DNA of 64,000 nt from Chitinophagaceae bacterium (GTDB lineage: Bacteria; Bacteroidota; Bacteroidia; Chitinophagales; Chitinophagaceae), in NCBI GenBank assembly GCA_037045515.1, contig JBAOIC010000023.1:7093-71092 (forward strand), given 5' to 3'. Each line of letters starts with the position of its first letter. The stretch's first letter is position 1. The notes under the pieces were generated by a model. That model saw only the letters and a program-made list of their open reading frames with translations. It searched no databases and was not told the DNA's origin. Positions 8,848-9,806 of this stretch are shown one piece after another. The position numbers and the translations under genes were made by a program.

Positions 8848-9336
8848 GTGTCCCCTCGAGCCCTGCAGAACCTGGTGGGAGGTGCTGCCGTCGATGCCGC
8901 CGACGGCGCCACCATCGACCTGGTCGACCCGTCCACCGGCGAGGTCTTCGCCACCTCGCCGCGCTCGGCGCCGCAGACGTCGATGCCGCCTGCCGGGCGG
9001 CGGCCACCGCCTTCGAGAACGTGGCGCGACACGACGCCGAGCGACCGCCAGCGAGCGCTGCTGAAGCTCGCCGACCTCGTCGAGGAGCACGCCGACGAGC
9101 TGGTCGCGCTCGAGTCGGAGAACACCGGCAAGCCGATCGGCCTCACCGCAGAGGAGGAGGTCCCCCCGATGGTGGACCAGATCCGCTTCTTCGCCGGGGC
9201 CAGCCCGCGTCCTCGAGGGGACCTCGGCCGGCGAGTACATGGCCGGCCACACCTCGTGCGAATCCGCCGGGAGCCGATCGGCGTGTGCGCCCAGGTCACG
9301 CCGTGGAACTACCCGATGATGATGGCGGTCTGGAAG
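8848..9336 (+). pseudogene. aldehyde dehydrogenase family protein, N-terminal third only, several frameshifts
   Basis: GGAGG at 8838-8842 precedes the GTG at 8848. Reads LQNLVGGAAVDAADGATIDLVDPSTGEVFATSPRS / GAADVDAACRAAATAFEN / WRDTTPSDRQRALLKLADLVEEHADELVALESENTGKPIGLTAEEEVPPMVDQIRFFAGA / ARVLEGTSAGEYMAGHTS / [25 protein letters not shown]. It ends abruptly where IAPALAAGN would be expected. Confidence 0.8.
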
Positions 9337-9380
9337 AGGCGATACGTTTGTTAGCGCTTGAGTTCGTCGTGTAAATCTCC
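9337..9380. other. composition breakpoint / linker of intermediate GC between the high-GC and low-GC blocks
   Basis: AGGCGATACGTTTGTTAGCGCTTGAGTTCGTCGTGTAAATCTCC is about 45-50% GC. It is not a continuation of the ALDH frame and not part of the next ORF. Confidence 0.7.
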
Positions 9381-9806
9381 TTAACTCTGTTTTACTGTAA
9401 GTGCTTTGATGTTCTTTAATGCAATGGTGGTGTGGTACACTATATCCACCTTTTTGCTGTACTTCTGCATCTTGGTATTAAAAGCATTGTAAACACGAAG
9501 TGTTTCAAGGCTGATAACGGCATTATAAAACTTGCTTACTGCATCGCTGTAAGCTGGAAAATCTATTGCGTAGCAATGGTTTTTCAAAGTGCTTGTACCC
9601 TTTGTATTTTGCTTTGTAAGCCATTTGGAGAGGTCGGAATAATCAGCCAACAATATTTGAAGCTGTTGCACCAACTCGGCTTCTGTGGTGGGTTCTTTGC
9701 TGCCTACCTTTTTTATTTTCTCGTTGATGGCTTTTGTGCCTTTGGCATCAAAAGTCCAGGGCATAAGTTCTTTGAACAAAATGCTATTCAATATTTTTAT
9801 TTCCAT
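9381..9806 (-). CDS. hypothetical protein (integrase-adjacent)
   Basis: Intact 141-aa ORF with low-GC codon usage. Its start overlaps the stop of the integrase gene. No family recognised. Confidence 0.6.
   Translation of the reverse strand: MEIKILNSILFKELMPWTFDAKGTKAINEKIKKVGSKEPTTEAELVQQLQILLADYSDLSKWLTKQNTKGTSTLKNHCYAIDFPAYSDAVSKFYNAVISLETLRVYNAFNTKMQKYSKKVDIVYHTTIALKNIKALTVKQS

Follow-up and report, generated by a model that had tools for sequence, protein, structure and literature searches.

A contig deposited for a Chitinophagaceae bacterium (assembly GCA_037045515.1, contig JBAOIC010000023.1) changes at a single point from DNA of one phylum to DNA of another. The window analysed here is a stretch of 64,000 nucleotides (nt), positions 7,093 to 71,092 of that contig. 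It opens with DNA rich in guanine and cytosine (high GC) whose relatives are Acidimicrobiales (Actinomycetota), and continues with the low-GC chromosome of a Chitinophagaceae bacterium (Bacteroidota), the two meeting close to the tyrosine integrase gene of an integrative element inserted next to mnmE. At face value this would be an integrase-mediated transfer from Actinomycetota to Bacteroidota, remarkable if true. We conclude that the breakpoint is very probably an assembly chimera, i.e.: a mis-join in a long-read metagenome assembly arising from a low-depth join, and not a biological junction. An original prediction, made from the letters of the window, had also favoured an artefact over capture by the integrase. 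Its preference is borne out by an attachment (att) site that lies elsewhere, by genes cut on both sides of the break, by an orphan filler between them, by a step in the density of errors, and by eight other copies of the element that continue in low-GC DNA.

A change of phylum within a few tens of nucleotides

The features that meet at the break are the following.

1 to 9337, no strand: foreign high-GC block, ~70% GC, a chromosomal fragment of Acidimicrobiales (Actinomycetota), with many single-base insertion errors
8848 to 9337, forward strand: aldehyde dehydrogenase (ALDH) gene, N-terminal third, with four frameshifting indels; Pfam Aldedh
9338 to 9373, no strand: orphan junction filler GGCGATACGTTTGTTAGCGCTTGAGTTCGTCGTGTA, 36 nt, 47-50% GC, matching neither side
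9374 to 9806, reverse strand: truncated DUF6617 backbone gene of the element, N-terminal ~143 of 349 codons, annotated as a hypothetical protein of 141 amino acids (MEI2708008.1 / V9E96_03190)
11535 to 64000, no strand: Chitinophagaceae chromosome, ~32% GC, collinear with independent assemblies

GC content steps from ~72% to ~33% between 9337 and 9375. Measured in 40-nt windows, it is 0.725 at 9270-9309 and 0.325 at 9370-9409, so that the drop takes place within ~60 nt; 1-kb windows stay at 0.68-0.75 over 1-9000 and at 0.27-0.38 over 10001-64000. The abrupt fall that had been predicted is therefore present at both scales. Taxonomy switches at the same point as composition, from Acidimicrobiales relatives on the left to Chitinophagaceae chromosome on the right, in agreement with the predicted actinobacterial and Bacteroidota types of the two sides.

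Both edges of the break could be placed exactly, and each of them falls within an open reading frame (ORF). On the left, the alignment of the ALDH gene to a relative (L022) stops at 9337. The Aldedh profile is matched only at positions 5-146 of 461, and relatives run on past profile position 146 (continuing with IAPALAAGN), showing that the ALDH is cut at 9337. On the right, the similarity of all eight independent element copies (L011, L012, and L016-L021) stops at 9374, inside the DUF6617 gene: the first 138 residues of the 141-amino-acid ORF are identical to DUF6617 proteins of 349 amino acids, and ~205 codons are lost with respect to the copies. Both sides are hence matched by independent sequences that continue otherwise past the break, with the C-terminus of DUF6617 and a primase in the eight copies and with the rest of the enzyme in the ALDH relatives. 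The junction is not present in the eight other element copies inspected. Exact patterns spanning it had no match in GTDB representative genomes or JGI metagenome contigs, a result that is weakly negative for recurrence.

Between the two breakpoints lie the 36 nt of the orphan filler. The original prediction had cut the ALDH at 9336 and followed it with a linker of ~44 nt; the truncation holds, but the linker is shorter, 36 nt (9338-9373), and 9374-9380 are still part of the low-GC element. The filler occurs once in the window and is found neither in the eight element copies nor in the other fetched loci, and its core has no match in JGI metagenome contigs. Tests of whether the ALDH or the element continues into it, allowing for divergence or noise, were negative (p = 0.56 and 0.81). 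A screen of the junction for adapters, vectors, and linkers had been proposed as a check, and we compared 9320-9400 with a set of ~36 sequences of adapters and primers (Oxford Nanopore Technologies (ONT), PacBio, Illumina, Nextera, 454, Ion, BGI, and vector primers), without a significant match. Under strict scoring nothing rose above chance. Once insertions were tolerated, TruSeq appeared to match (score 26, reached in 0/300 nulls), with a match that consists partly of native ALDH sequence (TGGAAGA); for the orphan alone p = 0.043, uncorrected, and a TruSeq origin was rejected as not significant. Neither was the ONT-adapter-like GCGATACGT at the high-GC edge significant.

The integrative element and its attachment site

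The low-GC side begins within an integrative element, whose remaining features up to the host gene are listed here.

9806 to 10912, reverse strand: tyrosine integrase, 368 amino acids; Arm-DNA-bind_5, Phage_int_SAM_5, and Phage_integrase domains
10920 to 11318, reverse strand: zinc (Zn)-ribbon/helix-turn-helix (HTH) excisionase-like DNA-binding protein, 132 amino acids; Pfam HTH_17
11399 to 11470, reverse strand: four TTGTTGCCCA copies in the element arm, between the HTH gene and mnmE; candidate arm-type integrase binding sites
11535 to 11553, reverse strand: element/host boundary with core TTTGTATCGGAAAGTAATT / TTTGTATYGGAAAGTAATT, at the 3' end of mnmE; contigs with an empty site diverge at 11535
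11537 to 12913, reverse strand: mnmE (tRNA modification GTPase), MEI2708011.1; the exact protein is found on 18-20 other contigs

The mnmE site is empty in five independent contigs (L001, L004, L005, L007, and L008), in which an acetyltransferase gene comes directly after it and identity to the window ends at 11535. Element and host meet immediately past the stop codon of mnmE (11534/11535), and the same boundary is found in other hosts. Comparison of empty with occupied sites and the recurrence of the boundary are the reasons why we place the true recombination site of the integrase at 11535-11553 and not at the GC break. The att core is 2.2 kb away from the break, and the integrase gene itself 430 bp. 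The core is found once in the window, with no copy at 9337-9375 or in 1-9337, and the foreign DNA is not bounded by att sites of the element or by direct repeats. Neither the remainder of the element nor the sequence that flanks the empty mnmE site on its far side is present in the 64-kb window. As for the TTGTTGCCCA repeats, there are four exact matches against 0.38 expected, a number reached in 0/100 shuffles, and they are confined to 11399-11470; they are candidate arm-type binding sites of the Arm-DNA-bind_5 integrase.

The segment 9374-11545 is 98.0-99.4% identical to the eight independent element copies. Gene order in the six long loci is mnmE, HTH_17 (132 amino acids), integrase, DUF6617 (349 amino acids), HTH_17 (100 amino acids), BT4734-like/DUF3987 primase, HTH_3, and then cargo; the integrase module adjoins mnmE in 6/6 loci examined (L016-L021). 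The cargo is variable and defensive (BREX components, type I and other restriction-modification systems), and everything in these loci is low GC. The window follows the order mnmE - HTH_17 - tyrosine integrase - DUF6617 of this mnmE-3'-end element and is truncated in the last gene. The backbone is thus not intact: the break falls at ~codon 143 of the 349-codon DUF6617 gene, outside the cargo slot, which in intact copies (L016-L021) starts ~5 kb past the integrase. Two further claims of the prediction can be refined from these loci. It had correctly read a hypothetical gene, an integrase, and a Zn-ribbon/HTH gene in this order beside the break, of which the hypothetical one is the truncated N-terminal 40% of the 349-amino-acid DUF6617 gene. 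It had also put the high-GC DNA exactly where integrase cargo would sit, which is true in a loose sense but not as an exact placement.

The element is carried by many bacteria. The identical 368-amino-acid integrase is present in 358 collection blocks, whose source names include Saprospiraceae and other Bacteroidota metagenome-assembled genomes (MAGs) from several families, and the identical 132-amino-acid HTH_17 protein on 409 contigs, where its JGI name is 'excisionase family DNA binding protein'. The integrase/HTH module had no close match among known phages, and no mention of DUF6617 was found in the literature searched. The neighbouring element is biologically real, widespread in Bacteroidota, directed to the 3' end of mnmE, and loaded with defence cargo.

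The occupation of the mnmE site varies. In another five contigs (L002, L003, L006, L009, and L010) it is filled by a different HTH + integrase element, with integrase DNA ~67% identical, so that the same Chitinophagaceae population shows three states of the site: empty, with this element, or with the second one. Despite the ~67% identity of the integrase DNA, the terminal ~145 bp of the second element are similar to the window (11391-11535). Several related contigs end less than 1 kb from the mnmE locus, which marks it as a strain-variable spot where assemblies habitually break. One of the eight copies stands apart: L011, a 55-kb Logan contig (SRR33465456), carries the HTH-integrase-DUF6617 module at 98.8% identity, with no mnmE called beside it and with neighbours that have few or no Pfam matches (one Cpn10-like gene and several large proteins without Pfam matches); its similarity to the window stops ~10 nt into mnmE. 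It may represent a different host context, or a different type of element with the same module.

A step in insertion-error density

Three of the genes in the high-GC block are needed for the comparison of errors on the two sides.

1369 to 2451, reverse strand: bioB (biotin synthase), with at least two frameshifting insertions; Pfam Radical_SAM and BATS
2571 to 4512, forward strand: NIT-domain sensor histidine kinase, split over two frames; Pfam NIT (frame 2571-4256) and HATPase_c (frame 3838-4512)
5711 to 7614, forward strand: drrA-drrB-type ABC exporter operon; Pfam ABC_tran and ABC2_membrane; near-identical to the operon of Candidatus Microthrix save for 26 inserted stretches

Against Candidatus Microthrix (L028-L032), drrAB shows over 5709-7599 a total of 26 insertions, 0 deletions, and ~9 internal substitutions. 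For two intact genes, 26 insertions to ~9 substitutions is not an evolutionary ratio, and these insertions are therefore sequencing or consensus errors. Comparison of 2.6 kb of the block with the short-read contig L015 gave nine insertion events, among them those at 1928 and 2175 in bioB and at 3228, 3269, and 3396 in the sensor kinase gene, and comparison with L022 gave the four frameshifting indels in 490 bp of ALDH. Overall, the high-GC block contains 39 indel events in 5,016 bp (7.8 per kb) and the low-GC side 23 events in 35,236 bp (0.65 per kb, against five to six concordant references), a 12-fold difference (binomial p = 1.6e-20). A far higher indel density on the high-GC side had been predicted and is confirmed by these counts.

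The errors of the low-GC side are of the same kind as those of the high-GC side, insertion-only and non-homopolymer. The low-GC stretch adjoining the break (9374-18946, ~9.5 kb) holds one event. Three differences in 2.17 kb are private to the window when all seven element copies compared are considered, and two of these three, a substitution at 9387 and a 1-nt insertion at 9393, fall within 20 nt of the break. The consensus of single-molecule reads tends to retain insertion-biased errors when depth is low. The common type of error says that both sides went through the same platform and pipeline, and from the step in density we infer that far fewer reads support the foreign block.

Elsewhere on the low-GC side, single-base insertions, in part clustered, set the window apart from the five or six concordant references at 18947-19002, 35848-40832, 46602, 51730, and 53842. 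Some annotated low-GC proteins are shorter than in other assemblies: SRP54 (365 vs 440 amino acids), a GH31/TIM-barrel protein (782 vs 804), and a metalloprotease (843 vs 844).

A probable assembly mis-join and its alternatives

The deposited record itself bears on where the junction was made. Proteins unique to the MAG (prefix V9E96), from both sides of the break, are all recorded on one 95,280-bp NCBI contig: MEI2708001.1 (bioB fragment) and MEI2708006.1 (DrrB fragment) from the high-GC side, and MEI2708008.1, MEI2708016.1, MEI2708024.1, MEI2708039.1, and MEI2708052.1 from the low-GC side. Accessions MEI2708001-MEI2708060 are consecutive and in window order across the break. The junction therefore lies inside a single deposited contig and comes neither from binning nor from concatenation. 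The prediction had grouped several artefacts together: assembly artefact or contaminant holds, while a binning chimera and concatenated contigs do not, both sides being on one contig.

The explanation that we consider very probable, a mis-join during assembly of a community that was probably of the activated-sludge type, would run as follows. A well-supported Chitinophagaceae contig would have run into the integrative element inserted after mnmE. With near-identical copies of the element in many co-occurring Bacteroidota, and the site empty or otherwise occupied in the same population, the element would behave as an inter-genome repeat at which assemblies break. Some 2.2 kb into the element, a low-depth read or graph edge, or a few of them, would have carried the contig on into unrelated Acidimicrobiales DNA from the same sample. 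The extension could have come from a chimeric read or from a false link in the graph, and it would have left behind a 36-nt filler that cannot be assigned and a foreign block that is close to raw in quality. In this sequence of events the low depth of the foreign block and a chimeric read or edge as the cause of the join are deduced; the two breakpoints, the cut in either gene, the place of the true att site, the nature of the two sides, and the step in errors were observed.

Some observations weigh against a mis-join or soften the case for it. Looked for as signs that the high-GC block is terminal in the contig, a partial coding sequence and a conserved 26-mer predicted 5.2 kb past the end of the window both gave no match. 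The 36-nt filler is not identifiable as an adapter (best uncorrected p = 0.04). Errors on the low-GC side are patchy too, with 13 events in 35.8-40.8 kb, and hence richness in errors does not by itself prove that a stretch is foreign. Of the three high-GC references, two are diverged (92% and 84% nucleotide identity), and the step in coverage is read from the error rate as its sole proxy.

The presence of both sides on one deposited contig would also be expected from a real and very recent insertion, by illegitimate recombination in a Chitinophagaceae cell, in which the DUF6617 gene of the defence-island element received at least 9 kb from an Acidimicrobiales chromosome. The poor quality of the block would then reflect a rare sub-population backed by few reads. 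The location within a mobile element whose relatives bear variable cargo, and the origin of both organisms in the same type of community, speak in its favour. We nevertheless regard such an event as highly unlikely. The att core, the arm sites, and the cargo slot all lie away from the break; composition is fully unameliorated, and drrAB is ~99.5% identical to that of free-living Candidatus Microthrix, insertions aside. Insertion errors become 12-fold denser from 20 nt ahead of the break onwards, whereas contiguous DNA is expected to have equal depth on both sides. An insertion has no counterpart in the eight other element copies, its junction was not found in GTDB representative genomes or JGI metagenomes, and neither its other end nor the rest of the element is in the window. 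It would need to be extremely recent, to be present in a rare sub-population, and to coincide with a drop in quality.

A junction made downstream of assembly, whether by concatenating contigs of a contaminated bin or in the construction of the window, would account for two genes truncated as at contig ends, and other assemblies of the organism do end near this locus. Its probability is, in our judgement, very small indeed, given that the unique proteins of both sides share the 95,280-bp contig with consecutive accessions (MEI2708001-MEI2708060), that plain concatenation does not add 36 nt matching neither side, and that the private errors at 9387 and 9393, inside the low-GC side, would be left unexplained. 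Site-specific capture of the high-GC DNA as cargo, which the prediction had given as its second reading and for which a tyrosine integrase 430 bp from the break is suggestive, is barely credible: it is contradicted by a recombination site that maps to the opposite end of the module, where mnmE stops, by the lack of an att core copy at the break, and by the interruption there of a conserved backbone gene which relatives have in full.

The two partners of the probable chimera

The high-GC block is ordinary housekeeping chromosomal DNA of an Acidimicrobiales bacterium. Besides the genes given above, it contains the following two.

5052 to 5618, forward strand: Roadblock/LC7 domain protein; Pfam Robl_LC7, E = 1.8e-17
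7751 to 8553, reverse strand: luciferase-like (LLM) oxidoreductase, split over two frames; Pfam Bac_luciferase

Pfam thereby bears out the gene list predicted for this side (bioB, kinase, Roadblock, DrrAB, LLM, and ALDH). The two frames of the LLM oxidoreductase cover profile positions 70-160 (frame 8032-8553) and 157-241 (frame 7751-8374). The closest relative of bioB is the ENA contig L015, with 98% amino acid identity, and identity to proteins named Acidimicrobiales or Microthrixaceae is 77-90%; its C-terminal 184 amino acids (1372-1926) correspond exactly to MEI2708001.1, a 'radical SAM protein'. The N-terminus of the ALDH is 94% identical to a protein of an 'Aquihabitans sp.' MAG. There was no close match of the block among known plasmids.

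The affiliation of drrAB differs from that of its neighbours. Ignoring inserted bases, the operon (5711-7599, aligned with 9034-10891 of L028-L032) is ~99.5% identical to that of Candidatus Microthrix, and the DrrB fragment (7033-7614) annotated as MEI2708006.1 clusters with this genus. Thus, drrAB points to Candidatus Microthrix, and bioB and ALDH to another Acidimicrobiales lineage. Candidatus Microthrix contigs were tried as a full-length reference for the block and discarded: drrAB alone aligns, and the flanks are not syntenic. The discordance may reflect either a recent exchange of the operon among Acidimicrobiia or more mosaicism in the foreign block.

On the other side, more than 10 independent contigs from metagenomes or MAGs that carry the label Chitinophagaceae (L001-L010 and L023-L027) match 11535-22917 and 34143-55834 at 99.0-100% identity, and the gene order over 53-64 kb is the same in four further contigs (L033-L036). 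One local difference was seen there: in GCA_963853005.1 (L034, 8932-9654) a DDE transposase (DUF4096/DDE_Tnp_1) lies upstream of an AraC-family regulator gene, at a place corresponding to ~62.0-62.9 kb of the window, and none is listed in the gene tables of L033, L035, and L036.

Implications and comparison with known systems

The public MAG (V9E96_...) holds at least 9.3 kb of foreign DNA, and bases 1-9373 of the window merit a contamination flag. MEI2708001.1 and MEI2708006.1, and probably the other entries of the high-GC block numbered between MEI2708001.1 and MEI2708008.1, are misannotated as 'Chitinophagaceae' proteins and are really fragments of Acidimicrobiales ones. Such records can give rise to false calls of horizontal gene transfer and, in protein databases, to wrong taxonomic labels. 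The case also shows that independent assemblies of both partners, together with a step in indel-error density, allow a chimera to be recognised when no reads are at hand.

What the breakpoint shares with genuine islands of horizontal transfer on integrative elements is DNA of foreign composition beside an integrase. Genuine islands have att repeats, depth and quality at the level of the host, uncut backbone genes, and no unassignable filler at their joints, and the foreign block departs from them in these respects.

A second likeness concerns the neighbouring element and not the breakpoint. In Gammaproteobacteria, integrative mobilizable elements of the SGI1 family target the 3' end of trmE (= mnmE) for insertion (PMC8409611). 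The low-GC element likewise uses the 3' end of mnmE, has a tyrosine integrase and a small excisionase-like HTH protein at that end, and bears variable cargo. It differs in its Bacteroidota host, in its unrelated backbone (DUF6617 and a BT4734-like/DUF3987 primase), and in carrying defence cargo instead of resistance integrons. The comparison is one of insertion site and layout, and we claim neither membership of the family nor homology of the integrases.

Rather than a biological feature, the breakpoint as such is, in our reading, an assembly chimera of a standard kind. Long-read metagenome assemblers are documented to produce multi-phylum chimeric contigs with sudden shifts in GC, coverage, and gene taxonomy (bioRxiv 10.1101/2025.04.22.649783). 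The junction described here resembles the inter-phylum chimeras of that study in its abrupt change of GC and taxonomy, in its position at a repeated or variable locus, and in its unsupported indels that break ORFs. The evidence differs: chimeras were recognised there by read clipping and coverage, and here by independent assemblies and a step in error rate.

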